64,000 nucleotides of DNA from a virus, in IMG/VR virus record IMGVR_UViG_3300009448_000011, positions 41,688-105,687 of that record; one strand, given 5' to 3'. The notes under the pieces were generated by a model that searched no databases, was not told the DNA's origin, and saw only the letters and a program-made list of their open reading frames with translations. The position numbers and the translations under genes were made by a program. Shown piece by piece: positions 16,124-40,939 of the stretch (the first letter of the stretch is position 1; each line of letters starts with the position of its first letter).

Positions 16124-16147
16124 TTAAAAAAGGAAAAAGAGAATAGA

Positions 16148-17138: not shown

Positions 17139-17222
17139 CGTTCTGATTCATCTATTCCTTCAGACTTATCAATTTTATTCATTTCGCCCCAAAGACCATC
17201 TAAATTTTCTTCATCAGAACCC

Positions 17223-20503: not shown

Positions 20504-20556
20504 CTTAAACCCTAAATTTTCATCTAGGTTTGGACTATACCTTTTAATGTAATTAT

Positions 20557-20586
20557 TTGACATACATTAAAACACCGTGTTATAAT
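20557..20586 (+). promoter_or_regulatory. Sigma70-type promoter of cassette copy 2
   Basis: TTGACA-18 nt-TATAAT with extended -10 TG. Confidence 0.8.
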
Positions 20587-20613
20587 TAGTATAACAAAGA
20601 AACATTTTAGATA

Positions 20614-21192
20614 ATGGACATACAAACAGCGGCGAATTTACAAGAATTAATAGAACAAGATCCTTTAATAGAATTAATCGAAATATGGGATAAAGTTTTA
20701 TACATAAGAAAAGTAAAAGGCCGAGGAAGGTTTCATACTAAAAAAAATATTACTTTGTTAAAAAGTGGAATATACATCAATACAAAATATATACTCCAAG
20801 AATACAAAAGACTTCAAAAAAAATATCACCCTGATTTAAACAAAGGAAAAAAAAATTATGTTGAAATTTCAAAAAGCATTAATCAATGGAAAGACTTATT
20901 ATTTGAATGTGACGAAAGAGAACTCAATAGAACAGTATATCAGTTACTTATTACAACATGTGGACCGCTCACATCCATTTTCAGCATTGGAAAATCAGCA
21001 GACTTTATTTGGGGGCAAGAGGCCGGATTTCTCCACATCCCTAGATTTAATTCTGAACAGGAATTCAAGGAATGGAAAATTCCCTTTAGGAATTGGGCGG
21101 AAAAACTCGATGATTGCCGATTGCCTAGAAGTAAAAGGAAGTTCTCAGATGTTGAGCACTACGGAGTTAATGAAAGAGATCTTCCTTTTTGA
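20614..21192 (+). CDS. Cassette ORF-A copy 2
   Basis: IEIWDKVLYIRK, YKRLQKKYHPDLNKG; ends ERDLPF. Confidence 0.75.
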   Translation: MDIQTAANLQELIEQDPLIELIEIWDKVLYIRKVKGRGRFHTKKNITLLKSGIYINTKYILQEYKRLQKKYHPDLNKGKKNYVEISKSINQWKDLLFECDERELNRTVYQLLITTCGPLTSIFSIGKSADFIWGQEAGFLHIPRFNSEQEFKEWKIPFRNWAEKLDDCRLPRSKRKFSDVEHYGVNERDLPF

Positions 21193-21589
21193 TGCAGCAG
21201 AAACTATTGTTCCTACTTATGATGTTTCTATGTCTGATTTTCAATCTCAATATTTTCCATTGGGGAAAGAAAGCAAGAATTATTTCAGAAGTTATGTGCA
21301 GGAAGCACTTAATAGAGGCATCAAAGTGAAATCATTTACTTTTTGGTTTGCGGGCCCTCTAGTGTCTATTGAAGCCATCAAATTTTCTATTTATTGGAAT
21401 CGCGTGATCAAACAAATAGGTGGAATTCAAGTAGAAATCAAAGTTTTGTCTTTGGAACAATTAATTAATTACATCATTTCCAATATTCCAACAAAAAAAT
21501 GGTATGTATTAAATCAACATCCTTCTGTTTGTATGAGTAGAGCGCAGGTTGAAGCTCTAATAGAAGCTCAACTAGCCATTTTAGTATAA
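20858..21589 (+). CDS. Cassette ORF-B copy 2, PD-(D/E)XK endonuclease
   Basis: LENQ..KRPDFS...CLEVK. Confidence 0.75.
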   Translation: MLKFQKALINGKTYYLNVTKENSIEQYISYLLQHVDRSHPFSALENQQTLFGGKRPDFSTSLDLILNRNSRNGKFPLGIGRKNSMIADCLEVKGSSQMLSTTELMKEIFLFDAAETIVPTYDVSMSDFQSQYFPLGKESKNYFRSYVQEALNRGIKVKSFTFWFAGPLVSIEAIKFSIYWNRVIKQIGGIQVEIKVLSLEQLINYIISNIPTKKWYVLNQHPSVCMSRAQVEALIEAQLAILV

Positions 21590-21616
21590 TCTTTTAATAT
21601 CTAATTATCTTTAAGT

Positions 21617-21649
21617 CGCCTTGTACATTAATGTATTTAGGCGTTTTTT
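21617..21649 (+). terminator. Intrinsic terminator of cassette copy 2
   Basis: cgcct...aggcg hairpin followed by T6. Confidence 0.7.
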
Positions 21650-21787
21650 ATTATGTATTCTTAAAAGTCTCTGAACCATTTTATAAACTTTCATTTATAG
21701 CTGGCTGCTGATTGACATATAGTATTTTTTAAACTACTTAGTGTTCCAGCAATTGAGTGTTTTTTACTTCACCATAATTTACAATTT

Positions 21788-22051
21788 AGTGAAGCCGCAG
21801 ACTTTACCACGGTCTCTTCTTGTCCATCCATTCATATCTTTTTTAGCTTCTTTAATAACATTCCATTTAGGAACAGTAGCTAATTCAGGGTACATTCCAA
21901 TAGCCGAAACTACATGAAGATCCCCGTCAGGATTAGGATATGTTTCTTTTGTATGTGGATTAATAAGAAAGGGATTATGCACTTCGGCATCGAAAAACGC
22001 ATTAATCATTCTCTCTATTTTTGCTATACAAGCAATAGCTCTTACTTCTTG
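21788..22051 (-). CDS. polA: PolA polymerase subunit, exon 2
   Basis: QEVRAIA...GDLH...RDRGKVCGFT. Confidence 0.9.
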
Positions 22052-22271
22052 CAATATAGTTTTATTCTATACTGGCACTACTCTTCACCATCTCTATTAA
22101 GTACAGGTGTTTTACGTCAGTGCTCTACTCTTGCCCAATTAATATAATAGAATAATAGTTCTAATTAATTTGCTAGATCGGGATTAGTTTACTATCACTT
22201 TCCCCGAATTGGTAAAATATTTTTTATACTATTTCTAATATAAACGACCCTTTTTTATTGTATTTATTTGT

Positions 22272-22300
22272 TTGACATTCAGCCATATAAGAGATACAAT
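22272..22300 (+). promoter_or_regulatory. Sigma70-type promoter of cassette copy 3
   Basis: TTGACA-17 nt-TACAAT. Confidence 0.8.
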
Positions 22301-22327
22301 AAAAAAAAGACAAAAAACAAATAAGGT

Positions 22328-22900
22328 ATGGATGCTCAAACTTGTAGAAACCTACAAACATTAATTGATAAAGATAATAATATTGAACTCATAGAAATAT
22401 GGGCCAAGGTACTTTATCTAAGAATGAAAAAAGGAAAAAACAAGTTTTGCAGTAAAAAAGGAATAACTAATTTAAGCTCAGGAATTTATTTAAACTTAAC
22501 TAACTTTAAAAATGAATACACAAAATTGCAACGAAAATATCACCCAGACAAAAATGCAAAACATTTTGAAATTTCAAAAGGTATTAATCAATGGAAAGCA
22601 TTTATATTTGAATGTGACAAACGAGAACTTAATAGAACAGAACTTAATACATTACTTGAATCATGTCCCCCCAACACATCCTTATTCTCTCTTAGAGAAC
22701 CAGCAAGTTATTTACAACAACAAGAGACCGGACTTTTCAACCACCTTGACGACATTGCCAGGCACTATTGGGCCACTGTTACGCCTAAGCAAAGAGCTGA
22801 GGCAGAAGCTAGGGAAGAAGAATGGCTTGCTCGTCGATGTGGTAGAAACAAAGATGGAAGTAAATACGTCGACCCTTATGAAGGAACTTGTCCCTTTTAA
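22328..22900 (+). CDS. Cassette ORF-A copy 3
   Basis: IEIWAKVLYLRMKKG, LQRKYHPDKN; ends YEGTCPF. Confidence 0.75.
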   Translation: MDAQTCRNLQTLIDKDNNIELIEIWAKVLYLRMKKGKNKFCSKKGITNLSSGIYLNLTNFKNEYTKLQRKYHPDKNAKHFEISKGINQWKAFIFECDKRELNRTELNTLLESCPPNTSLFSLREPASYLQQQETGLFNHLDDIARHYWATVTPKQRAEAEAREEEWLARRCGRNKDGSKYVDPYEGTCPF

Positions 22901-23300
22901 AGAAGATGCACAACAATTTGTTGATTCATCTTTTAGAAAGGAACAATTTACTTTTAATGCAGAACGCGTTGTCAATTATAAATGTTACATAAGCAATTAT
23001 GTGAAAGCTGTTCAACAAAAAAAAGGTAAAGTAAAACAAATTACTTTTGCTTTTGTAGCTCCAAAAATAACAGTAGATGCATATGAATTGGCGTGGATTT
23101 TAACACATAGTCCAATTTACAATAATATTGGTGGCGTTAAAATCATAGTAGAATTATATACATTAGAAGCTTTTATCGAAAAACTGATTAATATAATCCC
23201 AGCCAATAAATGGTTCATTAAAAGTTCAATTCCTTTTAATTGTGTAAATGGGAGAGATGTAGATCTTCTAGTTAAAGAAAATAGAGCTATTATTATTTAA
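22512..23300 (+). CDS. Cassette ORF-B copy 3, PD-(D/E)XK endonuclease
   Basis: LENQ..KRPDFS...VVETK. Confidence 0.75.
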   Translation: MNTQNCNENITQTKMQNILKFQKVLINGKHLYLNVTNENLIEQNLIHYLNHVPPTHPYSLLENQQVIYNNKRPDFSTTLTTLPGTIGPLLRLSKELRQKLGKKNGLLVDVVETKMEVNTSTLMKELVPFKEDAQQFVDSSFRKEQFTFNAERVVNYKCYISNYVKAVQQKKGKVKQITFAFVAPKITVDAYELAWILTHSPIYNNIGGVKIIVELYTLEAFIEKLINIIPANKWFIKSSIPFNCVNGRDVDLLVKENRAIII

Positions 23301-23326
23301 TTTATTTATTTTTTATCTTTAGTAAT

Positions 23327-23356
23327 AAACTCAGTATATAGGTGTATACTGAGTTT
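23327..23356 (+). terminator. Probable terminator hairpin of cassette copy 3
   Basis: aaactcagtata/tatactgagttt inverted repeat followed by T-rich sequence. Confidence 0.6.
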
Positions 23357-23373
23357 CAATTTATATTTAGTTA

Positions 23374-23460
23374 AGCCGAGTAATCACTAATACCCACACA
23401 CATACCTTTAGGCGCCGCACCTAAAGCTTTTCTTACCGTTGTTGTAATTTCATATGACAT
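23374..23460 (-). CDS. polA: PolA polymerase subunit, exon 1 (29 codons, missing from the ORF track)
   Basis: MSYEITTTVRKALGAAPKGMCVGISDYSA; the spliced product is 29+88+200 = 317 aa. Confidence 0.85.
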
Positions 23461-23522
23461 ATTTAATTTTAAATTTGGTTTAATTAATGAAAAAGAATAA
23501 ATAGCAATAGAATTAAAATATT

Positions 23523-23876
23523 TTAAACAATATTATGTTTCAACAAAACAAGAATGATTTGTTTAATAATATCGCCATGACAATCATTAGGTTTGCACCA
23601 ACAAGCAAGTTTAAAATCTACCCCTTTTTTTTCTAATTGAGCTAAGCGAATCAATTCATCATAAACAGAGCCTTTTTTCAAAGAATACATTTGAAGAATC
23701 CAGGCCTTATAGAGCTGTAGACTTTCTGCAAGAGTTCTATTATGTCTAACTGCATAAGGATTATTTAAAGGGCTAGCTTTTAAATTGTAATAAGCATTTT
23801 TACGGCCAATGTAGATAATATCTTCGCCAACAAATCCGTCTTTTTTCCCATTGATAATGTGCATAGAGTTGTTCAA
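23523..23876 (-). CDS. DUF4326-like protein
   Basis: IYIGR..SPLNNPY...LACWCKPNDCHGDII. Confidence 0.8.
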   Translation of the reverse strand: MNNSMHIINGKKDGFVGEDIIYIGRKNAYYNLKASPLNNPYAVRHNRTLAESLQLYKAWILQMYSLKKGSVYDELIRLAQLEKKGVDFKLACWCKPNDCHGDIIKQIILVLLKHNIV

Positions 23877-23883
23877 TTAAATA

Positions 23884-25173
23884 TCAAAATTGATGTTGAT
23901 CAATAGAAATAACAGCAAGAGTAGAAGAAACTTGTTGTAAATTAGCAGAGCCACTAGAACTCATGCGACCTGTACTAGAACCTATAGAAGAAAAACCGAC
24001 ATGTACGTTATTAGTAGTACTATTAATAATAGAGTTATACTTCAAACATTCAGACCAAAGTTTACTATATTTTTTATAACGTAACAAATTTTTAATTAAA
24101 TTAATATGACTATATTTAGAAATCAAATAATTCTCATCAAATAAAGGTTCTTTTTCTTCATCAAGGGCTTCTTGTTTTAGTAGATCAAGATATAATTTTA
24201 TTTCATCTGCTTGCAAGCTAGATAAAGAAGCGCCGCCTAATTTAGTCAAATAATCATTAATAAAAGAAACTAAGCCCTTATTATTATTAAGTAAAGTTTT
24301 GACTTTATCAGGAATAACATACTTAAGTTCCCAATGACCTTGAGCATTAAGATCAGTATCAGTATAGATAGTAAAACCTAATTCATGTACTAAATAAGAT
24401 CTATGAAGATTAGTTTGTTCTTCGGCATAAGAAGTAATCTTAGCTAATAGAGAAGTATCGAGACACATGCCGTAATATTCCATTTTTGCACAAATAACAG
24501 TAGCTTGCTGATCTGATTCGTATGCAAATTGTTGATGAAGAAGATCAAGTTGAGTTTTAAATAAATAATAACCTTCAATTAATATAGAATTAATAGAAGA
24601 AAGTTTAGGAGCGCCAACATCTAAAGCGGCATAACCTAATTGGCTAGTAGTTAAAGGTCGTTCACCCCAAGAACTAGTAGCTTCACTTTTATCGAGATGG
24701 ATATCAAAATAATCCCTTGCTAAATCTTTAAGACCATGGCCTCTAAATATAGAAGCTTTCATTCCTGTAGTAATGGCCAAACTTTTCATTAAAGTCAAAG
24801 AACAAACAGTATTAACGGGCCAGGATTTAAACTCGTTATAAAATTGTTTTAAATCAAATTGACTATAGTGAAGTATTTTTAATATATTTTCATTAAGCAA
24901 TACTTTTGTATTAAATAAAGATTTAGCAGAAGAACTCAATAATATAAAATCTAAAATATAAGGAATAGAATGATTTATACTATTTAATTGAACTAAAGAT
25001 ATTTTAGAACTATGAGGATCCAAAGCACTAGGATTTACTTTAGATAAATCAATCATAGTTTCAGTATCCAGTGCAATTTCCTTACTTTCTACACAAAAAT
25101 CAATTATTGCCTCTATATCTTTATCTTCTGTTACATAATAAATATCAATTTCCGCTGTTTCTATTAATTTCAT
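23884..25173 (-). CDS. polA: PolA N-terminal subunit (3'-5' exonuclease and thumb)
   Basis: ALDTET, FDLK, YAALDV, TGRMSS..NLQQ; the ORF stops before motif A. Confidence 0.88.
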   Translation of the reverse strand: MKLIETAEIDIYYVTEDKDIEAIIDFCVESKEIALDTETMIDLSKVNPSALDPHSSKISLVQLNSINHSIPYILDFILLSSSAKSLFNTKVLLNENILKILHYSQFDLKQFYNEFKSWPVNTVCSLTLMKSLAITTGMKASIFRGHGLKDLARDYFDIHLDKSEATSSWGERPLTTSQLGYAALDVGAPKLSSINSILIEGYYLFKTQLDLLHQQFAYESDQQATVICAKMEYYGMCLDTSLLAKITSYAEEQTNLHRSYLVHELGFTIYTDTDLNAQGHWELKYVIPDKVKTLLNNNKGLVSFINDYLTKLGGASLSSLQADEIKLYLDLLKQEALDEEKEPLFDENYLISKYSHINLIKNLLRYKKYSKLWSECLKYNSIINSTTNNVHVGFSSIGSSTGRMSSSGSANLQQVSSTLAVISIDQHQF

Positions 25174-25235
25174 ATTAAAAAAAATATATAATTCTAATTA
25201 AATATTTAATTAGAGTATATAATATAGAATTAGGA

Positions 25236-25679
25236 TTAAGAAGACAAAGTAGAAATATCTTGTTTCAAAGATTCTATTTCAGAAGAAACAGCTAAAGAAT
25301 TAAAATCAAATTCAACAGAAGAAGAAAGGTCAGGATTAGGGGAAGAATCTTGTTGAAGTTGTTGAGAGACATAAGAATCTGCATCAAAAACAGAAAAGCC
25401 AGAAGATTGATCTAGAGAATTGGGGGCAACTCTAGGAATAGAGGGGGCCTCAGTAGAAATAGTGACTTGATTTTTGTCAGTATAACGAGGTTGAAAAGGA
25501 GAATCATTAGAGGAAGAAAGAGAAGAGTTGCGAGAATATAAAGAAGATGTAGAGCTTTTAACTGCTTCTGCGGCGGTATTTAAGATACAATCAATTTGAT
25601 ATGTTTTCTCTATTAATTCTTTCCGAGCAGCAACTAATTCTGAAACAGACATAGTTTTATAAGATTTCTTTTTTATCAT
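25236..25679 (-). CDS. Hypothetical Ser-rich protein
   Basis: ORF between recA and polA. Confidence 0.5.
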   Translation of the reverse strand: MIKKKSYKTMSVSELVAARKELIEKTYQIDCILNTAAEAVKSSTSSLYSRNSSLSSSNDSPFQPRYTDKNQVTISTEAPSIPRVAPNSLDQSSGFSVFDADSYVSQQLQQDSSPNPDLSSSVEFDFNSLAVSSEIESLKQDISTLSS

Positions 25680-25684
25680 AGGAT

Positions 25685-26779
25685 TTAAGAAAGATTTAGA
25701 ATAGAATTTAATTGAAGTTGGAGATCGAGATAAGAGTCGGGATGTTCCAAATAATAGTCGTAAACTTTTTGAAGACCTGCGACTTTTTTATCTAAATGAG
25801 GAACATAGAACCAAGCACCGTGTTGTTGAATAATATTTGCATCAAGAGATAAATTAACGGTATCAGCAAAAACATCAACACCTGCTATTATAGTATCATT
25901 TCGTTTAATAGGAAAAATAAAAGGAATTTCCACTTTTTTAAAGGGGGTAGAGGTTTTATTTTTAACAGCTTGAATAGAAACAATTTGACCTATTTTTTCT
26001 TTAGCGTCTTCAAGCCAACTAACACGATTTAAATCTAATCTAACAGAACAATAATAGTGAACAGCTCTACCTCCACAAGTAGTAGATTTAGAACCATAAC
26101 CAAGAAGATTCTGACCACGTTCTTGATTAAGTAAGATAATAGAAATATTACGTTCAGCAGCAAGAGTAACTAATTGTTTAAGAGCATTACTCATTAAGCG
26201 TGCTAAAGAACCAATCATAGTAGTACCCATTTCTTTTTTTTCATCTAGATCGCCACTAGGAACAAGAGCTGCTACAGAATCAAGAACAATTAAATTTAGT
26301 ACAGGATTACCAGCACTATCTTGTAATTTTATACCTGTTCGTATAGCCTCTAGAGCTTCTTCTGCAGAATTAGGTGCAAAGGTACAAAGTTTATCTAAAT
26401 TAACGCCACAATATATCATAAAGTCAGGATCTATAGCATGTTCAGCATCGACCCACATACAAAGTTTGTTTTGTTTTTGATAACTAGAAACAATATGGGA
26501 AGCCAAAGTACTTTTACCAACACTAGTATCTCCAAAAATCTCTATAATTCTGCCTACGGGGAGACCGCCGCCCAAAACGTTATTTAAACTTAAACAATCT
26601 AATTTAACTCTACCGACGCTTTCAAATTTATTTTTATTACGAAATCCAGCATATTGAGTACCAAACTTTTTACTAAGAGTTTTATCAAATAATTCTAAAG
26701 ATTCAAAGTCAGTTTCAGGTAGATCAGTTTCAAGTAGATCAGTTTCAAGTAGATCAGTTTCAGGTAGATTTTTTTTCAT
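25685..26779 (-). CDS. recA: RecA recombinase
   Basis: GGLPVGRIIEIFGDTSVGKST, DAEHA, DSVAAL, ARLMS, KNK; N-terminal ETDL(L/P) repeats. Confidence 0.93.
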   Translation of the reverse strand: MKKNLPETDLLETDLLETDLPETDFESLELFDKTLSKKFGTQYAGFRNKNKFESVGRVKLDCLSLNNVLGGGLPVGRIIEIFGDTSVGKSTLASHIVSSYQKQNKLCMWVDAEHAIDPDFMIYCGVNLDKLCTFAPNSAEEALEAIRTGIKLQDSAGNPVLNLIVLDSVAALVPSGDLDEKKEMGTTMIGSLARLMSNALKQLVTLAAERNISIILLNQERGQNLLGYGSKSTTCGGRAVHYYCSVRLDLNRVSWLEDAKEKIGQIVSIQAVKNKTSTPFKKVEIPFIFPIKRNDTIIAGVDVFADTVNLSLDANIIQQHGAWFYVPHLDKKVAGLQKVYDYYLEHPDSYLDLQLQLNSILNLS

Positions 26780-27542
26780 CTTTAAAATTAGTAATAGAGT
26801 TATATAAATAAATTAATTCAAAAAAAGTAGATTCAGACATACCAACATAGGAACCGACTTTATTTGTATATATATAGCAAAAATTACTACCAAAACTATT
26901 ATCAAAAGACTGAGTAGTAATTTTGGGCAATTCTTGTAGAGCAAAAAGGTAAGAAGAAGAAGGAGAAGAAGAAGTTAAAGTAAATAGAAATTTATAGATG
27001 CCCTGAGAAAAAGATTGAAAATGGTGTATAAGTAATAAAGGAAAAGTAGTTAAAAAAGTAGTCCAAATAGTAATAAAAGTTTTATAATCTAAATAAAAAT
27101 AAGAGTTATGAGTAAGGACTAAATGAATAATAATAAGTTTAATATTCTGAGAATAAGATTCTTTGTATTCTTTTAAAGAAGGTAAAAAAGAAGAAGTAGA
27201 TTTAAATCTACATTTAATTTCCACTTTAAGTTTACCTATATTGGATAAATAGAGAGAAGCATCGCCATCGCCATTAATAGAACCACTACCTCTAGTAGGA
27301 TTAAAAAAAGGTAAATTTTTTATAACAACTAATTCTTTAGTCTTACCCAATTTACTATAAGAGACTGCTTTAGATTTTTGAACAATATTTGCGGGATGTT
27401 TATTAATATCTTTATTAATAGGAGAATATAGTAAATACTTACTTTTTAAATTAGCTTTACATTCATGACATCTAGTTTCATAGTTTTTACAATTCAAAAA
27501 ATATTCAGCGGGACAGTTCTTTAATATAATTTCTTCTAACAT
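26760..27542 (-). CDS. Putative Holliday-junction resolvase or PD-(D/E)XK nuclease
   Basis: GSGSINGDGD...VEIK. Confidence 0.45.
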   Translation of the reverse strand: MLEEIILKNCPAEYFLNCKNYETRCHECKANLKSKYLLYSPINKDINKHPANIVQKSKAVSYSKLGKTKELVVIKNLPFFNPTRGSGSINGDGDASLYLSNIGKLKVEIKCRFKSTSSFLPSLKEYKESYSQNIKLIIIHLVLTHNSYFYLDYKTFITIWTTFLTTFPLLLIHHFQSFSQGIYKFLFTLTSSSPSSSYLFALQELPKITTQSFDNSFGSNFCYIYTNKVGSYVGMSESTFFELIYLYNSITNFKDEKKST

Positions 27543-28067
27543 ATGACTACTAATTTAAATTTAAAATATTCTATTACATTTAGTGCAGCCACAAAAGTAA
27601 TAGACAATAATGCTGAATTTTCATCTGAGGATATAGCGCAACAACAATTACAATTCAATAGCAATAGTTTAATTAATTCTGCGGCAAAAAGAATAGAGAT
27701 ACAATTATACCCTACACCTTATTTAACTCCGTCTATACATAGAGTATATGATTTAGATTTAAATTCTTTAAAAATTGGGTTTCTGAGAATGATTTATATT
27801 AAATCAGAAACCCAATTTTTATATTCAACAGCAGACAGTTTAATTAATTTAGGAACTGCACCTAGAGAATTAACACAATGTTATGTAATAGATAAAGGAT
27901 TCATGCCTTCACCTACTATATTCACCCCAGATATTCCTTATGCTAAATTTATTAGATTAATCAATCCTCTTGAAATTAATGGAGGAGGTTCAGGAAATAG
28001 TGAGGCAGATATTCCTATACTAGTTAGTTTATTAATTGTGTCTACGCCTGCTACTCCCCTTATTTAA
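27543..28067 (+). CDS. Hypothetical protein
   Basis: 174-aa ORF filling the gap between divergent genes. Confidence 0.55.
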   Translation: MTTNLNLKYSITFSAATKVIDNNAEFSSEDIAQQQLQFNSNSLINSAAKRIEIQLYPTPYLTPSIHRVYDLDLNSLKIGFLRMIYIKSETQFLYSTADSLINLGTAPRELTQCYVIDKGFMPSPTIFTPDIPYAKFIRLINPLEINGGGSGNSEADIPILVSLLIVSTPATPLI

Positions 28068-28354
28068 ATGGTAGGTTTATAAACAACAGGTTCTGCCGCC
28101 TCTTTATCACGTAAACCTACATAAATAAAAGGATTGCCTTTAAAAGAGGTAGATTTAATATATTCTCTATAGCCTGCGGGAACTATAAAACTAACTTCTA
28201 GATTAGTATTAGGTCTCATTTTTTTACCATTTAACTCTTTAAATTCACCACTAATAATAGTCAAAGTTTTATTATTATAGGGATTTTGTAGTTCAGTTCT
28301 AATAATCATATCTTCGTCACCAGGCAAAGAAAAATCAAAATCATCAATATCCAT
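28064..28354 (-). CDS. Hypothetical protein
   Basis: ORF. Confidence 0.5.
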   Translation of the reverse strand: MDIDDFDFSLPGDEDMIIRTELQNPYNNKTLTIISGEFKELNGKKMRPNTNLEVSFIVPAGYREYIKSTSFKGNPFIYVGLRDKEAAEPVVYKPTI

Positions 28355-28355
28355 A

Positions 28356-28781
28356 TCAACTTCTCCTAATATTATTTAATTCACTAAGTAGTAATTTCAT
28401 AAAAACGGGGTTATTTTTTCTAAAATCATCTGTGTATTCTTCTAAATTAACACAAGCTAAATCTTTAAAATACGCAATATTTTTATTAGTTTGAATTACT
28501 GCAATGTTGCTCCAATCTTTTAAAACAACAGTATTAAAAGCAACATTATATCTTTCTTCATAAGCTAAACGATAATAAGTTTCTGTAGATAAACAAAAAG
28601 CTATTTCTTTTGTTAGTTTATGACAACTAATTTTACGCATAGCTTGTGTTAATGAATATATAGGAATAAGAGAAGGATTTCTTTTACGAGTAAAGAACCC
28701 TTTTTTTATTAACTTTAATAATAACTTTTCTTTGGTATTTTTTATATGTGGCACATTTAGTAGCATAAGAATTAACTTCAC
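28356..28781 (-). CDS. Hypothetical protein (true start probably downstream)
   Basis: ORF overlaps the 3' end of DHFR. Confidence 0.4.
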   Translation of the reverse strand: MKLILMLLNVPHIKNTKEKLLLKLIKKGFFTRKRNPSLIPIYSLTQAMRKISCHKLTKEIAFCLSTETYYRLAYEERYNVAFNTVVLKDWSNIAVIQTNKNIAYFKDLACVNLEEYTDDFRKNNPVFMKLLLSELNNIRRS

Positions 28782-29238
28782 TAAAAAGGTTATTTATACT
28801 AGCAGGATACTCATCTAACTTAACAATATCTCCTTCTATTTTAATAACTTCTTCTTTATTAATAATAGTTAAATATAATTCATCCCATATATTTAATGTT
28901 TGTTTATATATCGAACCTCCTCCTATAATAAAAATATCTTTAGTAGGATATTTTAATTGGGCGCTTTCTATTGCATAAAAAATATCTGTAAAAACACAAG
29001 CATGAGTATTTTCTATTAAATTAAAAGTTCCAGTTTTACTTATTACATAATTTATTCTATTAGGTAAGCACTTTTTACCCAAACTTTCCCAAGTATTTCG
29101 ACCCATGATTACGACATTATTAGTAGTAAGCTGTTTAAAATGTTTTAAATCTTCAGAAACATTCCAAGGAATAGAGTTATTACAACCAATAATTCCATCT
29201 TCATTTATAGCAACAATTGCAATAATTTTAGTACTCAT
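28684..29238 (-). CDS. folA: Dihydrofolate reductase
   Basis: IPWNVSEDLKHFK, VIMGRNTWESL, LPNRINYVIS, IIGGGSIY. Confidence 0.93.
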   Translation of the reverse strand: MSTKIIAIVAINEDGIIGCNNSIPWNVSEDLKHFKQLTTNNVVIMGRNTWESLGKKCLPNRINYVISKTGTFNLIENTHACVFTDIFYAIESAQLKYPTKDIFIIGGGSIYKQTLNIWDELYLTIINKEEVIKIEGDIVKLDEYPASINNLFSEVNSYATKCATYKKYQRKVIIKVNKKRVLYS

Positions 29239-29635
29239 CCTAATTCTTAATAATAGTTAAACTCATGTGTTTCCTCATTAAATACCAGTAAATTACCCTT
29301 ATATTTTTTTAAAGATTGTCGTACAGGGGTATATTCTTTTGTATTTTTTGTTTTTAATTTGGCAATTGCCAGACGTAAACTAGTCATTAAATCATCAGAC
29401 ATAATATTAATTCCTTATTTTTAAAAATTGATATTATATTCCGTTCAGTCTTTCCTCAAAATAACAGGAAGATTGTTATGAACAAAAGGAATATAATAAT
29501 TTTGTTTATTGTGTATTTTGTACAAAGCAACATCATAAAAGTGGATATGTTTATGTACTACCCAAACACCCCACAAATTTTCCAATTCAATCTCATCCGT
29601 AAGTCTAAATGTATCATTAATATCTATCATAGAAA

Positions 29636-30454: not shown

Positions 30455-30526
30455 ATATGATTACTAATTACTATATTTTTTTTCTTATTATAATAGGAAC
30501 AACTTAATTACTTATATATATATATT

Positions 30527-31309: not shown

Positions 31310-31373
31310 TCAATCCTAGCTAGTGATATACTTAGGGAGTCAATAAATACACTTTTTATAAAAATACAAAATA

Positions 31374-32885: not shown

Positions 32886-33478
32886 TGCATAAAACAATTA
32901 AATATTATAATGATAAATTTGATATTGATGGAATACAATTTCCAAATTCAATAGTTAAAACAACTAAACCGTCTTTTGCCTGCGAAGATGAAATAAAAGA
33001 ATTATTTTATAAAGAAGCGTCAGGTCAAAATCAAATAGTGTTTAAAGATGATTCTATAAAAAATATTTCTGATTTTGACCCTTTTTATAATGAATTAATA
33101 TTATTAGCTTCTTATTTTGAATTTGAATATAAAGAAATTTTATTTAAAGAAACTCAAATAATTATAGATAAACCGCTTCCTATTGTAGATTTTAAAGAAC
33201 TTTTTGCGCACGACATTACTGCAAAAAAACAAAGTATTAAGATAAAAATAGTAGAAGAATTAATAGGAAAAGAAATACTAACAGATAAATTTTATTTTAA
33301 TATCCTAGATAGATTGAAAAAAACTTTATTAATTCAAAGTGATTGGACTCAACTACCCGATGTTCAATCTTCTTTTTCTGATGAAGAAAAACAATCCTGG
33401 ATTATGTATAGGTTATCGTTACGTAATTTAGATAATGTTACAGATCCTTTAAAAGCAAGATTGCCTAAATACCCTTAA
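32885..33478 (+). CDS. Tail fibre assembly chaperone
   Basis: SDWTQLPDV...W..YR..LRNL...P. Confidence 0.75.
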   Translation: MHKTIKYYNDKFDIDGIQFPNSIVKTTKPSFACEDEIKELFYKEASGQNQIVFKDDSIKNISDFDPFYNELILLASYFEFEYKEILFKETQIIIDKPLPIVDFKELFAHDITAKKQSIKIKIVEELIGKEILTDKFYFNILDRLKKTLLIQSDWTQLPDVQSSFSDEEKQSWIMYRLSLRNLDNVTDPLKARLPKYP

Positions 33479-33489
33479 TTTCAACTTCA

Positions 33490-35856
33490 TTAAAACATTT
33501 TGTGAAGATTTAATTTGTGTTCCATTAAATTAATATAAAATAAAAAATCTTTTTCTTCTATACTAATTTCCGATTGAAAATAATTTTTAACACGGTAGTA
33601 TTTAAGAAAAGGAAGTTTAGTTAAATAATCCTGACATTCATTATATATATATATACATTCTTTTTGTATTTTTAAGGGTACTTTAAGGTCAACAAAAAGT
33701 TCATTATATCCTTTTTGTTGTAAACTTTTCTTCATTAATTGTAAATCATTATTAATTAATAAAGCATAGCTTTCTAATTCTTTATTGTTATTTAAATATT
33801 TTAGTGCTCCCTGATATTGATTATTTAAGTAACCAAATAAACTATTTTTTTCAGACAAGTTTTTATAATTAAAAAGAAGAAAAACTTCTTGATGATTTTG
33901 GAAGTAATAGTAAATAAAAAGATTTAGGCCTAAGAGATTTAAATTAGATTGATGAATTAAATAATCTTGTTTAATAACGTCTAACAAATTAACCCAATTA
34001 GAGCTAGTGAAATTCTTAGTTAAAGTAGGGATATAGTAAATATTAGATATAGAAATTTTTTTATAAATTAAATAGTTATTTAATCTTTCTATAAAATTTT
34101 GGATAACTTCTGGATATCTAGTAGTAATACCTAAATTTAGAAAAGGCACTAAATTCTGGGATAATTCTTCTTCATTTAAAAAATAACAAGTGCGAAGGGG
34201 AGCTTTTAACACTTTTATTTCTTTACACCACGCGCCTAAACCTCGAGCTCTTTCTCTTTGTTTAGTTTTGTGTAATTGTAATATAGTAAATACATTTGTA
34301 TTAGAAGGTTTTTTTTTAACAAAAGGATTATCTTCATTAAATTCTTTAATAATATTAGATAAATATACTGTATCTAAAGTTCTAAGAATCCATGGTTGTA
34401 CTTTATCTAAATCTACAGAAGAAACACAAATAAAATTAGTGTCACTTAATTGTTCCCTATTTTTTTGGATATAAGCTTTTAAATATTTTTTATAATTATT
34501 ATATTTACTATCTTGTACACATAATATATACTTATTTTTTCCTGTATAAATAGTACTAGTTTGTATTTTATTTAATACATCAATTTCTTTAGATTTTAAT
34601 TTAGACCAGGATTTATCTAATTTATAGACTTTAAAAGTATCAGGGAGTTCTTTTTCGATAAAAATAGCATAAAACTTATCAAAAGAAAGGTTTTCAGGTT
34701 GCCAAGTTAATAAACTTAAAAATTTTGTACGTAATATATTAGGATAATTTACATAAGAAATAGTTGCGGAAATAAAGTCAGGGTTATGAATTAAATCAAT
34801 ACGCAAATATTTATAAAATTCTATAAAAAAAAGATATAAATATTGATAAAGTTCTAAGCAAGTTTTTTTAGTATATTGTAAATTTTCTCTAGAGGCAGAA
34901 ATATCTAAAGTACCTATAGGGACGTTAATCTCAAAAGAATACAAACATAAAACGTCAATAAATGTAAAAAACAACTCAGTATTTTTTAGATTGTCTATGT
35001 AATAAGGACAATTAGTAGTTATATAATATAAAACTTCGGGTGTAATATTACTAAAAGAACTTTTTAATAATTCTAAATCTAATTTATAAGGAATATCATA
35101 TATAACGACTACGTGTTTACAACCGTGTTTAGCTTCCCAATAATTAGTATCTACTAATAATAACGACCATAGTTTACCAAAATAGTTATAAGTATTTGTT
35201 TTTAAAGTTAAACGAGCTTCTAAAGTTTTATTTAAAAAATTAAACTTACTTTTAGTATATGTTAAATACAAAGATAAGCTTTTGAAAATATGAGTTAAAT
35301 CTTTTGTATTAAAAGGAACACTAACTTTTGTTCCAGGTAAAAACTCAATAATATTACTATCATTTTCTTCTAATAAAGTTAAAGAGCCTACCCGAGACTC
35401 ATCAATATATTGAACCCATTTTCTATAAATATTTATATTATTTTCTACAGTATAAGTTTCAATCCAAAAATGATCAGAATAAGCTAAAGCAGATTTACTA
35501 CCTAAGCCCCAACCACCTTGAAGATTATTATCTTCTCTTTTATCAGATTTTCCCATTTTAGAATACACATTAAAAATAATATCTTTATCCATAGAGTGGC
35601 CATAATCTCTTATAGAAAAGATATTAGACCCAAAGAGATATTCAATATTAATATCTATGGGAAGATCTATGTTAGCTTTTGTATGCGCGTCTACTGCATT
35701 GCTATAGAGTTCTCGTACAAAAGAAGAAATAGGATCTGTATAAATATTATTCCTCAATAAATTCATAATAGTTGAGGTATTTTCTAAATCTAGACTCATT
35801 TGTGTAGAAAGTTTCCCTTCAAAATGTCTAGACGTATTAACATTATTTAATTTCAT
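33490..35856 (-). CDS. rIIA-like GHKL/HSP90-type ATPase protein
   Basis: IYTDP..VRELYSNAVDAH, IRDYG, GGWGLGSKS, SASRENL. Confidence 0.8.
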   Translation of the reverse strand: MKLNNVNTSRHFEGKLSTQMSLDLENTSTIMNLLRNNIYTDPISSFVRELYSNAVDAHTKANIDLPIDINIEYLFGSNIFSIRDYGHSMDKDIIFNVYSKMGKSDKREDNNLQGGWGLGSKSALAYSDHFWIETYTVENNINIYRKWVQYIDESRVGSLTLLEENDSNIIEFLPGTKVSVPFNTKDLTHIFKSLSLYLTYTKSKFNFLNKTLEARLTLKTNTYNYFGKLWSLLLVDTNYWEAKHGCKHVVVIYDIPYKLDLELLKSSFSNITPEVLYYITTNCPYYIDNLKNTELFFTFIDVLCLYSFEINVPIGTLDISASRENLQYTKKTCLELYQYLYLFFIEFYKYLRIDLIHNPDFISATISYVNYPNILRTKFLSLLTWQPENLSFDKFYAIFIEKELPDTFKVYKLDKSWSKLKSKEIDVLNKIQTSTIYTGKNKYILCVQDSKYNNYKKYLKAYIQKNREQLSDTNFICVSSVDLDKVQPWILRTLDTVYLSNIIKEFNEDNPFVKKKPSNTNVFTILQLHKTKQRERARGLGAWCKEIKVLKAPLRTCYFLNEEELSQNLVPFLNLGITTRYPEVIQNFIERLNNYLIYKKISISNIYYIPTLTKNFTSSNWVNLLDVIKQDYLIHQSNLNLLGLNLFIYYYFQNHQEVFLLFNYKNLSEKNSLFGYLNNQYQGALKYLNNNKELESYALLINNDLQLMKKSLQQKGYNELFVDLKVPLKIQKECIYIYNECQDYLTKLPFLKYYRVKNYFQSEISIEEKDFLFYINLMEHKLNLHKMF

Positions 35857-35912
35857 TTGTAAAATTTGTTAAAAATATTAAAGAAGGTTTCAATACGACC
35901 TTCCTTAATAAT

Positions 35913-38285
35913 TTAAGTTTTAATAATATATAGTGCTTTACCGGCAGTTTTAGGAACTTCCACTGTTGTATTAATGACCCACAATAAATTAGTATTTTTA
36001 ATTTGGGAAGCAGTAGGAAAAACACAATAACCATCTGAAGCAATAATGCTTAAAATAGGGGTATATTTTTTAATACCGTAAAGTAGAGGAGTTACCATAT
36101 CAGTGCCCCCACCACCTTCAGCGCGAATCCACCCGTTTTTAATTTTATCTAAAAAGTTAGCGCCATCAGCTTTAACAATATATTCACTACGAACTTTTGT
36201 ATCTGCAAAAATCAAAGCAATTTCTACATTAGTTTGTGTTTGAACATTTTGTATTTCTGTACAAAACATAGTTAATTCTTCTTCATTAAAACAAGAACCA
36301 CTAGTATCTATTATTACTAACATTTTATCTAGACCCTTTTTATTTAAAAGACCAGGCATATAAACATTAGGGTTAGGTAAAGAGCCCATTCTTCTTGCAG
36401 GTTTACTCCACGTTTGTTCTAAAACAGGCATACACCTTTTAATTAAATATTTACGTAATTCTACATGCCAAGAAATTTGAGGTTTATAAACATCAGGATT
36501 AACTTTACCTAATATAGAATTGTTAGAATTAAGTGATTGAGCTTTAGCCCTATTATATCTTTGTGTCCATTGAAAATCATCTATTTGTGAAGAAGTAGAA
36601 TCTTCTTTATTGGCTTCTTTTATATCATCGCCTGCAAATAATGTATGTTTGCTTGCTAATTTTTTAGATAATTCTTCTACTTCTTTTTCTAATTTTTCTA
36701 ATACACTTTCTTCATTATTAGAAGAATCAGGAGGTTTTTTACTATTATTAGCCTTGCCCCCTTTTTTTTTATTTTGGGACTTTGACTGATTTTCTACTTG
36801 TTTTTGTAAATTATCTCGTAATGTTTTAATTAAATATTCATATAAACTTTCTGAGGTCCAGTGACTAAAATGTTTTCTTTCACTTTGCGCAATATTACAC
36901 TCAGAATATATACTCTCTAAATTAACTACTTCTTTTTTATTTAAATATAAATAGGAGGGTGATCCTACTTTTTGTTCATCTTTAAATCCAATACTTTCAT
37001 TTATAATTGCATCACAATTATGAGTCACTACATTACTTGCAAGATATATGTGCGTTTCAGTTTCAATGTTATACACTAATCCTTCATAATATTGCTTAGA
37101 AATATGTTTAATAGGAGTTAATATATAATCCTTAGTAGTTTTCCATATTTGACTATTATTTACATTTCTAGAAGATTTAGTAGTTTTAATATATGACAGT
37201 AAATAGCCACTTTCTACATAATCAATAGTTAAAAATTTATTATGTTTTGCAAATAATAATTGTAATTGTCTAGCTAATAAATTTGAAGATGTCCACGCAG
37301 TTAATTTATTTTTATTTCGGTGCCCTTCCCCATCAAAATAACCTTTAATAAAACTAGCAGTTAAATTATTAGGTAAATCTAAAAGCCAATTCGGCAATTC
37401 TGTTTTTTCTTTTATTAAAATTGAATTACAAATAGATACAATATAATAATAGTAGGAAAGAAAAGTAGAAGAAATTAAGGCTAAAGAATTAAAATAAGAT
37501 GAGATTCGATTATTTGGAATTAAATCAAAAGAACCTTTAGCCAGAAAATAGCCTATGGAATATAATAAATCATTTGTAAGGAGAAAGTTAGAAGGAAAAG
37601 GAGGGAGAATAGGAGGAATTAAAGAAGAATGAAGTTTAGGGATACATAAATAATCTTGAGTAATATTTAACTCTTGTGCTGTTTTCCAACTATAATTAAT
37701 TTGGTTATTAGAGTTAAAGTTAGCAACGTAAAAAGGATGATCTTGGGTAGCTTCAATATTCAAACAACCAGTGGGTTTAATAGTATACATATCATCTTGA
37801 TATATATTTTCCATAGTGTTTGTAATAGTGCCGCCAACTAAAGTGGTATCGCCTATGATTAAATCTTCTATATTCTTGAAACCTTCTAAGGTAAGAATAG
37901 GTTCTCCTGGTTTAAAACAAGCAATATTATATAAATTGCTAATTCTTTTTTTACCACGTATACAATGTCTAAATACAATATGAAGCATTTCATGAATAAT
38001 AACTGCACATTGTACAGGAATTTCTAATGAAAAAAATCTATCAGCAAAAAACATTTCATCGCCATTAGTATAAGCCACCTGTTCAAAATAAGGGTGAGAA
38101 TCAGGGACTACAGAACTAGGAACAAAAGTCAATAAGCCTTGTAGAGAATTATCTTCACATATAATACGAGCTCTTAAATTATGTAAAATCCTAATTTTTT
38201 TATCATAAGAAATATTAGAAGGAGGAAAACTATCTGCTAATTTTTCATCAGACATAGAAAATAAAGAAGTTTCAATCATAGTCAA
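35913..38285 (-). CDS. DUF2201-type metallopeptidase-like/VWA protein with intein
   Basis: AYTNG, HEMLH, NIA|CDAIIN, DTSGS, GGGGTD. Confidence 0.85.
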   Translation of the reverse strand: MTMIETSLFSMSDEKLADSFPPSNISYDKKIRILHNLRARIICEDNSLQGLLTFVPSSVVPDSHPYFEQVAYTNGDEMFFADRFFSLEIPVQCAVIIHEMLHIVFRHCIRGKKRISNLYNIACFKPGEPILTLEGFKNIEDLIIGDTTLVGGTITNTMENIYQDDMYTIKPTGCLNIEATQDHPFYVANFNSNNQINYSWKTAQELNITQDYLCIPKLHSSLIPPILPPFPSNFLLTNDLLYSIGYFLAKGSFDLIPNNRISSYFNSLALISSTFLSYYYYIVSICNSILIKEKTELPNWLLDLPNNLTASFIKGYFDGEGHRNKNKLTAWTSSNLLARQLQLLFAKHNKFLTIDYVESGYLLSYIKTTKSSRNVNNSQIWKTTKDYILTPIKHISKQYYEGLVYNIETETHIYLASNVVTHNCDAIINESIGFKDEQKVGSPSYLYLNKKEVVNLESIYSECNIAQSERKHFSHWTSESLYEYLIKTLRDNLQKQVENQSKSQNKKKGGKANNSKKPPDSSNNEESVLEKLEKEVEELSKKLASKHTLFAGDDIKEANKEDSTSSQIDDFQWTQRYNRAKAQSLNSNNSILGKVNPDVYKPQISWHVELRKYLIKRCMPVLEQTWSKPARRMGSLPNPNVYMPGLLNKKGLDKMLVIIDTSGSCFNEEELTMFCTEIQNVQTQTNVEIALIFADTKVRSEYIVKADGANFLDKIKNGWIRAEGGGGTDMVTPLLYGIKKYTPILSIIASDGYCVFPTASQIKNTNLLWVINTTVEVPKTAGKALYIIKT
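37017..37919 (-). mobile_element. Intein (301 aa) with LAGLIDADG-like domain
   Basis: Starts CFKPG, has ATQDHPF and FIKGYFDGEG, ends VVTHN|C. Confidence 0.9.
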
Positions 38286-38685
38286 TTCCTAATAATTCTG
38301 TTAAAGCAAACTGAGCATCAAATAATTGAATAGTGTTAGGTCTACTAAACTCAAATAAATATTGTTGAAATACGCCTAAAGATTTTTCATAATATTTTTC
38401 AACAATAGCATTTACAATAAGTTTTTCATCAAATAAAAAAGTAATTTCTTGGTATTGAGCTGCGGTGCCTAAATAGACAGTAAATCTAATAGTAGGATCT
38501 ACTACATCAACTCCCTGACTATTTTGATAAGTAGGAAAAAATATCAAAACAGCAAATTTTACTATATCTTCGTGTGTAAAATTACGAGAAGATAGAATTT
38601 CATACCCTCGATTAGTAAAACTATAGTAAGCCAATAATTCTGCTATTACTTTTAATTTGTTTTTATATTCTAAGTTTTTTGTCAC
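38272..38685 (-). CDS. Hypothetical protein
   Basis: ORF between the AAA+ and VWA genes. Confidence 0.55.
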   Translation of the reverse strand: MTKNLEYKNKLKVIAELLAYYSFTNRGYEILSSRNFTHEDIVKFAVLIFFPTYQNSQGVDVVDPTIRFTVYLGTAAQYQEITFLFDEKLIVNAIVEKYYEKSLGVFQQYLFEFSRPNTIQLFDAQFALTELLGIDYD

Positions 38686-38715
38686 GGGGAGTTTCTCCTT
38701 ATATAATTTTAAAAA

Positions 38716-39507
38716 TTAAACAGATATTAAATCACTAAAAGCTTGCATATGTTCTTTGCGCATTGCTTTATATGCCTCAGACTTACCAATTTTGTAGGGT
38801 AGTTTTTTATTATCTATTTTTTGTGCTTTACTAAATAGAGTAATCACACTTGTCACTAAAATTTCTTTACGAGGTAAATTATCTTCAATACTTCCTAATA
38901 CATTAAATACATAACATGCCGCTATAAATTCTTCTTCTGTTTTACAATACGACGGTAATGAATAACTTAATCCATATAAACCAGTTATTTTAGTAGGAAG
39001 AATATTTTTAATTAAGCGATCATCTTGGAGGACACCTAGACGAATATATTCAGACATAGGGGCAAGGCTAGCTAATTCTTCAATAACAAAAAAGAATTCA
39101 TGAGCAGTAGCGGCGCCTAAAAGACCTGGTAAAATAATTTTTAATTGTTGTTCATCAGTAATTTTCTCCATAATATTGGAACATTTTTCCCATGAACGGC
39201 TAGAAGGATTAATTTTATCATCATTATCTGCGACTGATTTAAAACCTTCGTCAAGAAATTCAGGACGAGCTCTTAAAAAAGCTTTAATAGAAGGAATAAT
39301 AGGGCGGCCGTTTTCTGCGCGATGGGCTTCCCATTTTAACCAAGCATTTACAGAAGTCATTACGTCAAAATGAATAAAACGATCTGAGATAGCACTAGAT
39401 AACTCATAGGCTATAGCACCATCTTCTACTCTATTTCCTGCTGCAATAATCATTACATTATCAGGAACTTTATATTTATCAATTTTTCTATCTAATATTA
39501 ATTCGTA
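38716..39507 (-). CDS. MoxR-like AAA+ ATPase, exon 2
   Basis: YELILDR, IAAGNR, DRF, SSRSWE. Confidence 0.88.
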   Translation of the reverse strand, partial: YELILDRKIDKYKVPDNVMIIAAGNRVEDGAIAYELSSAISDRFIHFDVMTSVNAWLKWEAHRAENGRPIIPSIKAFLRARPEFLDEGFKSVADNDDKINPSSRSWEKCSNIMEKITDEQQLKIILPGLLGAATAHEFFFVIEELASLAPMSEYIRLGVLQDDRLIKNILPTKITGLYGLSYSLPSYCKTEEEFIAACYVFNVLGSIEDNLPRKEILVTSVITLFSKAQKIDNKKLPYKIGKSEAYKAMRKEHMQAFSDLISV

Positions 39508-39752
39508 CATTAATATACCTTTAATTTTCATTAAAGAACGGAATACATTTTAATCTTTACTATATTTATATAGTATTAAGACTTGGACACTCTAGGTAAA
39601 ATTATAGTCTGTTTAACTTAAGACATCATTTACTACTCTCTACATTATTATTAAACATTACTTTAATAATTAACACGGGATTACCTTATAGTTTCCTACT
39701 TAGGTTTCCCCGTTAGCCTAATCTCTATTTGTTCTTTTTTGATTAAACCCTA

Positions 39753-39781
39753 TTGACTTATTAAAACCAATACATTATAAT
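39753..39781 (+). promoter_or_regulatory. Sigma70-type promoter of cassette copy 4
   Basis: TTGACT-17 nt-TATAAT. Confidence 0.8.
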
Positions 39782-39820
39782 ATATTTAAATACACACACA
39801 TTTACAAATAAGAAATTCAA

Positions 39821-40411
39821 GTGGACATACAAAGTTGTAAAAATCTTCAAGCATTAATTGATAAAGACAATAATATTGAACTCATAGAAATATGGGCTAA
39901 TATATTGTATTTAAGAATGCGAAAAGGAAAAAACAAATTTTGTAGTAAAAAAAGAATAACTAATTTAAAAGAAGGTGTTTATTTAAATATCTATACTTTT
40001 TCTAAAAATGAATACAAACAATTACAGCAAAAATATCACCCTGACACCAGCTCAAAATATTTACACATTTCAAAAAGTCTTAATCAATGGAAAGATTTAT
40101 TATCTAGATGTGACTACAGAGTCCAAAATAGAAGCATATATCTTGACATTGCTGCAACATATTCCAACAACCCATCCATATTCTCTATTGAAAAATCAAT
40201 TAGAATATTCAGTATGGCAAAAGAGGCCCGACTTTTCGACGGACTACTCGAGGATACCGCAGAGTGGGCAGAAGGATGTGATGAAGCCTGGCTCGCTCAA
40301 CAAAGAGCTGAGAGCCAATCTAGGTGGAAAGAATGGTCTAACTGGCAACGTGGTCGAGATAAAGAAGGAAATAAAATTAGAGACACTTATGACGGAACTC
40401 TTCCTTTTTAA
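39821..40411 (+). CDS. Cassette ORF-A copy 4
   Basis: IEIWANILYLRMRKG, LQQKYHPDTS; ends YDGTLPF. Confidence 0.75.
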   Translation: MDIQSCKNLQALIDKDNNIELIEIWANILYLRMRKGKNKFCSKKRITNLKEGVYLNIYTFSKNEYKQLQQKYHPDTSSKYLHISKSLNQWKDLLSRCDYRVQNRSIYLDIAATYSNNPSIFSIEKSIRIFSMAKEARLFDGLLEDTAEWAEGCDEAWLAQQRAESQSRWKEWSNWQRGRDKEGNKIRDTYDGTLPF

Positions 40412-40814
40412 TACAGAAGAAGAAGTATTTCTTGCTCCTCTCGGTAAAACTCACGATCAATTTCTAAAAGAAAATCCTATAGAAACTTCTTCATCTAAAA
40501 TGTATATACTTGCCACTAAACTTCATGCACAAAAATTAGGATTTAAACTAAAAAGATTAAATATGACTTTTGTGGCGCCTCTTGTTTCTAACAAAGCATT
40601 ACAATATGAACAATATCATAACAAAGCTATTAAAAATATAGGAGGAATTGCAGTAGATTTAAAAGTATTTACCTTAGAACAATTCATTAATGAATTATTT
40701 ACTTTAATTCCCGACAGTAAATGGTACATAAAAGATAATCATATTCCTTTTATCGCCTTGTCAAAATCTAAAGTAGAAATATTACAAGAAAATAATTTAG
40801 CCGTTATAATGTAA
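40008..40814 (+). CDS. Cassette ORF-B copy 4, PD-(D/E)XK endonuclease
   Basis: LKNQ..KRPDFS...VVEIK. Confidence 0.75.
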   Translation: MNTNNYSKNITLTPAQNIYTFQKVLINGKIYYLDVTTESKIEAYILTLLQHIPTTHPYSLLKNQLEYSVWQKRPDFSTDYSRIPQSGQKDVMKPGSLNKELRANLGGKNGLTGNVVEIKKEIKLETLMTELFLFNTEEEVFLAPLGKTHDQFLKENPIETSSSKMYILATKLHAQKLGFKLKRLNMTFVAPLVSNKALQYEQYHNKAIKNIGGIAVDLKVFTLEQFINELFTLIPDSKWYIKDNHIPFIALSKSKVEILQENNLAVIM

Positions 40815-40832
40815 TCATATTCATTTTTATTT

Positions 40833-40876
40833 AAATCTCTCTTATTGTGTTATTGCTTTAAGAGAGATTTTTATTT
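40833..40876 (+). terminator. Terminator hairpin of cassette copy 4
   Basis: aaatctctctta/taagagagattt followed by a T-rich tail. Confidence 0.65.
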
Positions 40877-40939
40877 GGTACGCAATAGTTTGCCCAGTTT
40901 TACTTATATATTTCTATATAAGGTGCCTACGAATATTTA

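Follow-up and report, generated by a model that had tools for sequence, protein, structure and literature searches.

How did one kind of gene cassette come to lie inside three group I introns of a single cyanophage-like virus, at a different place in each? The question is raised by bases 41688-105687 of the 105,687-base IMG/VR virus record IMGVR_UViG_3300009448_000011 (completeness estimate 62%), an AT-rich stretch of 64,000 nucleotides (nt) referred to here as the window. The split host genes of this region, encoding the catalytic half of a family-A DNA polymerase (polA) and a MoxR-like ATPase, all lie on the minus strand, and each of the three intervening sequences carries a plus-strand cassette of two overlapping open reading frames (ORFs), antisense to the ribozyme; a fourth copy, also on the plus strand, stands free. 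The original prediction for this locus was that the cassette rather than the intron is the mobile unit and that it entered unrelated introns at least three times. Our computational analysis makes it likely that these are group I introns, each colonised at a different peripheral ribozyme site by one family of autonomous antisense units.

Location of the cassette within the introns

The family-A polymerase of the window has its closest counterpart in Microcystis phage Ma-LMM01, with which it shares about 31% identity. When 23460..23374, 22051..21788 and 20503..19901 were joined, the product aligned without gaps to Ma-LMM01 gp178 at polymerase motifs A and B, and when 41305..40940 was joined to 39507..38716, the product aligned without gaps to two phage ATPases at LQASA/YELILDR. 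Because joining the exons gives gap-free alignments, the intervening sequences could be placed as listed in Table 1, with junctions exact to the nucleotide. The exons retain open frames and catalytic motifs. In 3/3 introns the last base of the 5' exon is U and the last base of the intron is G, and an in-frame stop codon lies 0-2 codons past the 5' splice site, a feature common to many bacterial and phage group I introns (PMC3984707).

Fold assignments confirmed the placements claimed for the cassette, namely the P1 loop in intron 1, the P7.1 region in intron 2 and the stretch after P2 in intron 3. In intron 1 the terminator hairpin of the cassette begins 17 nt past the 5' splice site, and the guide GGUCG, claimed to lie about 1.1 kilobases (kb) from that site, was located 1125 nt downstream; beyond it the fold runs without a break from P2 to P9 and on to the terminal G. 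The cassette of intron 2 lies between P7/P7.1-7.2 and P3', with P1, the 5' strand of P3, P4-P6 and the 5' strand of P7 (ending at 21666) upstream of it and with P3' (20575..20569), P8, the 3' strand of P7 and P9 downstream. The distance from R to S in this intron is about 1130 nt, compared with the usual 55-90 nt. A 6-pair P7.1-like stem (21660-21665 with 21610-21615) encloses the cassette hairpin, and the cassette promoter overlaps P8 and P3', its -35 box lying in the P8 loop and P3' falling within its spacer. Relatives of intron 2, which score 98-108 bits with Rfam, carry a 35-nt P7.1/7.2 insert exactly at the site taken by the cassette. In intron 3 the cassette lies between P2 and P3; P1, P10 and P2 (40944..40903) precede it, P3 (39721..39717), P4-P6 and J6/7 onward follow it, and a 6-pair stem (40888..40883 with 39755..39750) brackets it. 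The -35 box of the intron 3 cassette promoter was also observed to overlap the 3' strand of this bracketing, P2.1-like stem. The three cassette sites are not homologous.

Table 1. Coordinates of the introns, exons, cassettes and neighbouring genes in the window.
Feature	Position	Strand	Details
Intron 1, 1322 nt	23373..22052	-	polA motif A, DYSA/QEVR junction
Intron 2, 1284 nt	21787..20504	-	polA motif B, GFT/VIYGG junction
Intron 3, 1432 nt	40939..39508	-	MoxR-like ATPase, LQASA/YELILDR junction
Intron 1 guide GGUCG	22249..22245	-	pairs with exon end 23378..23374 across the cassette; 1125 nt downstream
Cassette in intron 1	22272..23356	+	promoter 22272-22300, ORF-A 22328-22900, ORF-B 22512-23300, hairpin 23327-23356
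Cassette in intron 2	20557..21643	+	promoter 20557-20586, ORF-A 20614-21192, ORF-B 20858-21589, hairpin 21617-21643
Cassette in intron 3	39753..40870	+	promoter 39753-39781, ORF-A 39821-40411, ORF-B 40008-40814, hairpin 40833-40870
Free-standing cassette copy	16094..17237	+	between minus-strand ORFs 14881..16053 and 17223..17696
ORF-A/ORF-B overlaps	20858-21192, 22512-22900, 40008-40411, 16392-16732	+	
polA exonuclease/N-terminal gene	25173..23884	-	Pfam, gene layout
DUF4326 gene between the two polymerase genes	23876..23523	-	small gene
polA catalytic-half exon 1, 29 codons	23374..23460	-	
polA catalytic-half exon 2	21788..22051	-	colinearity with gp178
polA catalytic-half exon 3	19901..20503	-	Pfam DNA_pol_A and alignment
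MoxR-like ATPase exon 1	40940..41305	-	phrog_1297 profile positions 14-119
MoxR-like ATPase exon 2	38716..39507	-	phrog_1297 from profile position 119 onward

Evidence for group I ribozymes

Matches to the Rfam group I model (Intron_gpI, RF00028) arose only when the intron flanks were scanned alone. The 5' flank of intron 2 then scored 24.6 bits (E 6e-4) over model positions 1-151, from P1 to the 5' strand of P7, its 3' flank scored 11.3 bits over positions 173-253, and the P4-P6 part of intron 3 scored 16 bits. We based a covariance model, R1, on three introns that Rfam verifies and that come from phages other than this one; a five-sequence alignment was dropped in favour of these three because MAFFT misaligned it. 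Against R1 the core of intron 1 (22221..22072) scored 46.9 bits (E 1.7e-10) from end to end, and the alignment recovered the P3, P4, P5, P8 and S assignments made by hand. Intron 3 scored 27.1 bits (E 2.8e-5), convincingly just for its 5' part, from P3 to J6/7.

P1 comprises seven pairs in intron 2, five in intron 1 and five in intron 3. In intron 2, P3 has seven pairs and R and S are classical. The manual model of intron 3 includes P7.1/7.2, P3', P8, the 3' strand of P7 with an S-like stretch and a P9 capped by GAAA; these helices all pair and stand in the correct order, and other P3/P7/P8 pairings were discarded because they left no space for P8. For introns 2 and 3, P10 helices of 6 pairs were drawn manually, outside the scripted helix check. 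We infer from the sequence that all three behave as self-splicing group I introns and that they splice.

A short repeat was observed at intron 2, where bases 6-23 of the intron (P1 loop and guide, 21765-21782) match the first 18 bases of the downstream exon (20486-20503, minus strand) at 16/18 positions; a repeat finder returned its 13-nt core (92% identity). Apart from 5 extra bases, the 5' junction with the intron thus comes close to restoring the junction without it, and the guide could have arisen from this repeat, or the repeat could act as an endonuclease decoy.

Relationships of the cores and of their cargo

The three introns had been described as unrelated, with different P, Q, R and S sequences in each core, and this description needs to be corrected. 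Introns 1 and 3 have identical P and Q over 8+8 nt, the same J6/7 hexamer and, in both, a GAAA-capped P2, so that just their R/S (P7) pairings differ, whereas intron 2 departs from both in its P, Q, J6/7 signature. Besides matching introns 1 and 3, R1 scores intron-2-type introns at 40-61 bits, and one covariance model thus fits all three types. Global identity among the three cores is 45-53% (45% for intron 1 against intron 3), near the background for their composition; in local alignment the pair of introns 1 and 3 reached z = 2.4, and the pair of introns 1 and 2 gave nothing. The best explanation is that the three cores belong to one broad phage/cyanobacterial structural class yet are not close relatives of each other. 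A division into IC3-like (introns 1 and 3) and IA-like (intron 2) classes was not established, because R1 fails to separate the two P4 signature types.

The 22-base P, Q, J6/7 signature of introns 1 and 3 retrieved 20 IMG/VR loci; of the 17 put through Rfam, 7 exceed its gathering score (52-89 bits). In contigs L019 and L017 (L032 is identical to L017), an intron lies in polA motif A, in L019 at the same codon boundary as intron 1 and in L017 7 nt downstream. The identity of their cores to that of intron 1 is 52-63% (63% for L017), their guide lies 0.83-0.86 kb from the 5' splice site, in the same place as in intron 1, and their P1 loop contains a sense-strand ORF of 262-279 amino acids that matches LAGLIDADG_3 at 44-55 bits, above the cut-off. 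A further contig, L022, holds a compact, ORF-less relative of intron 1 (Rfam 67 bits). Compared with L017, L019 and L022, intron 1 shows compensatory changes in five helices (P2, P3, P6, P7 and P9). The homologous P1 loop is thus seen empty, with a LAGLIDADG gene or with the antisense cassette, that is, in three cargo states. The different cargo in the closest relatives of intron 1 argues for a separate gain of cargo, and shows that intron cores and nuclease cargo have been exchanged independently.

The homologous introns of L017:960-2040 and L019:2215-3263, with their homologous LAGLIDADG genes, lie 7 nt apart in motif A, one after DYAS and one inside the codon before R, an arrangement that shows drift of the site within a single intron lineage.

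Protein searches covering billions of proteins returned 15-18 further members of the cassette family, from ENA, Logan and JGI; IMG/VR, JGI metagenome contigs, GTDB genome contigs and INPHARED phages yielded no relatives of ORF-A or ORF-B. The tree of ORF-B divides into two clades (support 99/99), one holding intron 2, the free copy and three others, and one holding introns 1 and 3 and ten others. For each ORF-B copy of the window, the nearest relatives come from other metagenomes and not from this genome, and that of intron 1 pairs with a metagenomic protein. The cassette copies are old lineages and not recent duplicates. One 282,341-base ENA contig holds at least five ORF-A relatives (P0026, P0027, P0032, P0033 and P0035) and one ORF-B relative (P0003), so that at least one other genome has several copies of the cassette.

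Organisation of the cassette and its predicted proteins

All four copies have the order promoter, ORF-A, ORF-B and terminator hairpin. The putative promoters are sigma-70-like and match 11-12 of the 12 consensus bases; in the scanned regions the four highest-ranking sites are the ones that precede the ORF-A copies, and the total number of promoter-like sites in these regions is not above chance. The free-standing copy is intergenic and outside any intron, in the manner of seg/mob-type homing endonuclease genes, an activity that is predicted here. Adjoining it is a TnpB/IS605 OrfB-type gene (17958-19220, plus strand; Pfam OrfB_IS605 and Cas12f1-like TNB), in a stretch of higher G+C content (0.38, compared with about 0.29).

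ORF-A encodes 190-207 amino acids and ORF-B 243-268, ORF-B starting within ORF-A in the +1 frame. Over the overlap of 335-404 nt (111-134 codons) both frames are free of internal stops in 4/4 copies, and the third frame has 15-18 stops. Within the overlap, the third codon position of the ORF-B frame was observed to be relaxed, as is usual, and the ORF-A frame to be less conserved. The half of ORF-A that is encoded in the overlap was predicted with low confidence.

In ORF-B the residues D75, E117 and K119 (D...E-x-K) are invariant in six full-length members. The structural matches of its AlphaFold2 model (predicted local distance difference test score, pLDDT, 85.7) are nearly all PD-(D/E)xK nucleases (1y88, 2vld, 2p14, 2ewf and 2fok), with Z from 7.2 to 6.6 over 101-141 aligned residues; ORF-B had no sequence match among PDB chains, and Foldseek returned no match at E <= 0.001. 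On the modelled structure, ORF-B is predicted to have a PD-(D/E)xK nuclease fold with the catalytic motif. ORF-A has an HPD motif that is invariant in 20 members, its best Pfam score for the J-domain (PF00226) is 24.4 bits against a cut-off of 27.8, and its list of structural matches is headed, weakly, by J-domains (Z 5.3-4.2).

The four copies have no common terminal repeats, no terminal inverted repeats and no target duplications, and comparison of the cassette proteins with Pfam and PHROGs gave no transposase domain; an identity as insertion sequence or transposon was rejected on these grounds.

Proposed origin of the cassette-bearing introns

We infer the endonuclease activity of the unit, its targets and the number and order of its invasions, and the sequence of events may have been as follows. 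ORF-B, to judge from its model, most likely acts as a homing-type endonuclease. In co-infecting relatives it would cleave alleles that lack the cassette or the intron, and the cassette, plus whatever flanks it, would be copied during repair. The free-standing copy shows that the unit does not depend on an intron. The cargo would have entered introns at least twice, probably three times.

Several observations weigh against this reading. Rfam gave no match on the native sequence of the window, the region or the whole genome, where the gathering score of 50 bits was not reached, as would be expected with each model interrupted by about 1 kb. The five P1 pairs of intron 1 include the U.G at the splice site, two of them are wobble pairs, and they span 1.1 kb. 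The 3' half of intron 3 (P7, P3' and P8) follows the manual model, and the R1 alignment there is different and poor. The structural matches of ORF-B all have Z < 8, and ORF-B matches no PDB chain by sequence; at such Z values the fold was assigned from the agreement among the listed matches, taken with the motif. A Loizos-type comparison of the intron sequence around the cassettes with the exon junction revealed no resemblance; the single high score, in intron 1, was rejected as an artefact of the closeness of the cassette to the exon, 16 nt away. Finally, the deepest split in the ORF-B tree coincides with the split in core signature (introns 1 and 3 versus intron 2). Congruent trees had been named as a sign against separate entries, and congruence was found at this coarsest level, where three tips are too few for a proper test.

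Because the two splits match, one ancient composite ancestor of introns 1 and 3 has to be considered. A single ancestral intron, or one for each ORF-B clade, would have gained the cassette, the composite would have spread to new genes, and later rearrangements would have shifted the cassette relative to P1/P2. Such a history would account for the P, Q and J6/7 shared by introns 1 and 3, for the position of their ORF-B copies in the same 99/99 clade and for the match of the single model R1 to all three cores. We nevertheless regard it as unlikely, since the sites are non-homologous (intron 1 has the cassette in the P1 loop, intron 3 after P2), since the intron 1 core is 63% identical to that of the LAGLIDADG-bearing L017 and 45% identical to that of intron 3, and since transposition of a whole intron leaves an internal insert in place.

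Separate colonisation of the introns is thus the reading that we prefer, with a different strength for each of its parts. That the cassette has a history of its own, apart from the introns, is supported by the free copy, by the three non-homologous sites and by the LAGLIDADG gene or lack of an ORF in the relatives of intron 1; this part of the original prediction stands, and the part that called the introns unrelated does not. At least two separate entries, one per ORF-B clade at non-homologous sites, are well supported. The third entry that had been claimed is likely, though not proven, because introns 1 and 3 differ in cassette site and the closest relatives of intron 1 carry other cargo.

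The invariant HPD motif of ORF-A has no counterpart in known homing endonuclease genes, the cassette borders lack target-like sequence, and the 282-kb contig shows at least five ORF-A relatives together elsewhere. These features would suit an accessory or counter-defence module, a nuclease with a co-chaperone-like partner, that used introns and spacers as neutral landing sites and spread by ordinary recombination. However, four diverged copies in a 105-kb genome, three of them in introns and all interrupting or abutting conserved genes, are the usual signature of homing-type nucleases, and no defence family was matched in searches that did not include PADLOC, so that we find this explanation quite improbable. 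That the insertions are dead, the split genes being non-functional or working as separate fragments without RNA splicing, would agree with the lack of a gathering-level Rfam match and is very improbable given the open exon frames, the conserved catalytic motifs, the nucleotide-exact junctions, the significant core-model matches and the failure to find direct or inverted terminal repeats.

A more specific form of the preferred reading, separate colonisation, is put forward tentatively. The cassettes may represent an undescribed family of autonomous antisense dual-frame homing elements of cyanophages, in which a J-domain-like partner is overprinted on a PD-(D/E)xK nuclease, and which repeatedly colonise different peripheral sites of group I ribozymes with their promoter within helices. 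If so, the placement of the promoter in P3'/P8 of intron 2 and in the P2.1-like stem of intron 3 may couple antisense transcription and splicing of the host gene.

Comparison with known systems

Endonuclease genes and group I introns are considered to have separate origins, with repeated invasion of introns and with free-standing genes as the likely source (PMC3984707). This independent invasion is the accepted model and rests on few clear cases, and our cassette data fit it. One genome with a free copy and three intron copies at three sites, together with relatives that carry other cargo, allows the model to be tested directly in one phage. The cargo itself is unusual in being antisense to the ribozyme, self-promoted and composed of two long overlapping frames.

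T4 sunY/I-TevII and collaborative homing (PMC3984707) resemble the present case in the separate histories of nuclease and ribozyme, in a free-standing nuclease and in inserts in peripheral parts of the fold. Here, in contrast, one cargo family occupies three introns of one genome at three sites, always antisense, and the cassette has its own promoter, two overlapping ORFs and no target-like flanks. Antisense endonuclease genes with an internal promoter are known from the nuclear ribosomal DNA group I introns Dsq.L2066/I-DsqI and Dir.S956-2 (PMC9548176), and the cassettes share with them the gene on the strand opposite the ribozyme and the internal promoter, which is predicted in our case. Those eukaryotic genes encode a His-Cys box protein, have polyadenylation signals and spliceosomal introns and lie at P9.2, whereas the setting here is a phage with sigma-70-like promoters and a predicted PD-(D/E)xK fold. 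A non-exhaustive literature search found no description of an antisense, self-promoted endonuclease unit in phage or bacterial introns.

I-Ssp6803I, cited in PMC3943268, is the PD-(D/E)xK homing endonuclease found in a tRNA intron of a cyanobacterium, and it is similar to ORF-B in catalytic type and in its cyanobacterial/cyanophage group I intron setting. ORF-B differs in having no sequence match to any PDB chain and in having an overlapping partner gene, and I-Ssp6803I was absent from its top 50 structural matches. Group I introns in phage family-A polymerase genes are shared with L019, L017/L032 and cyanophage Pf-WMP3, whose IA2 polA intron carries I-PfoP3I, an HNH cargo (PMC3428280), and L019 has in addition the identical codon boundary to intron 1, a homologous core and a large P1-loop insert. 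The cargo of these introns is sense-strand LAGLIDADG in L019 and L017/L032 and HNH in Pf-WMP3, but an antisense ORF-A/ORF-B unit here.

Other features of the host genes and related loci

The polymerase of the window is encoded by two genes (19901-25173), and the same two-gene layout occurs in Ma-LMM01 (gp180/gp179/gp178). Because Ma-LMM01 has this layout, the split of the polymerase gene predates the introns.

An IMG/VR contig, L066:79-1869, contains three Rfam-verified group I introns within 1.4 kb, adjoining a PhotoRC-II RNA match, which suggests a heavily intron-laden cyanophage photosynthesis gene.

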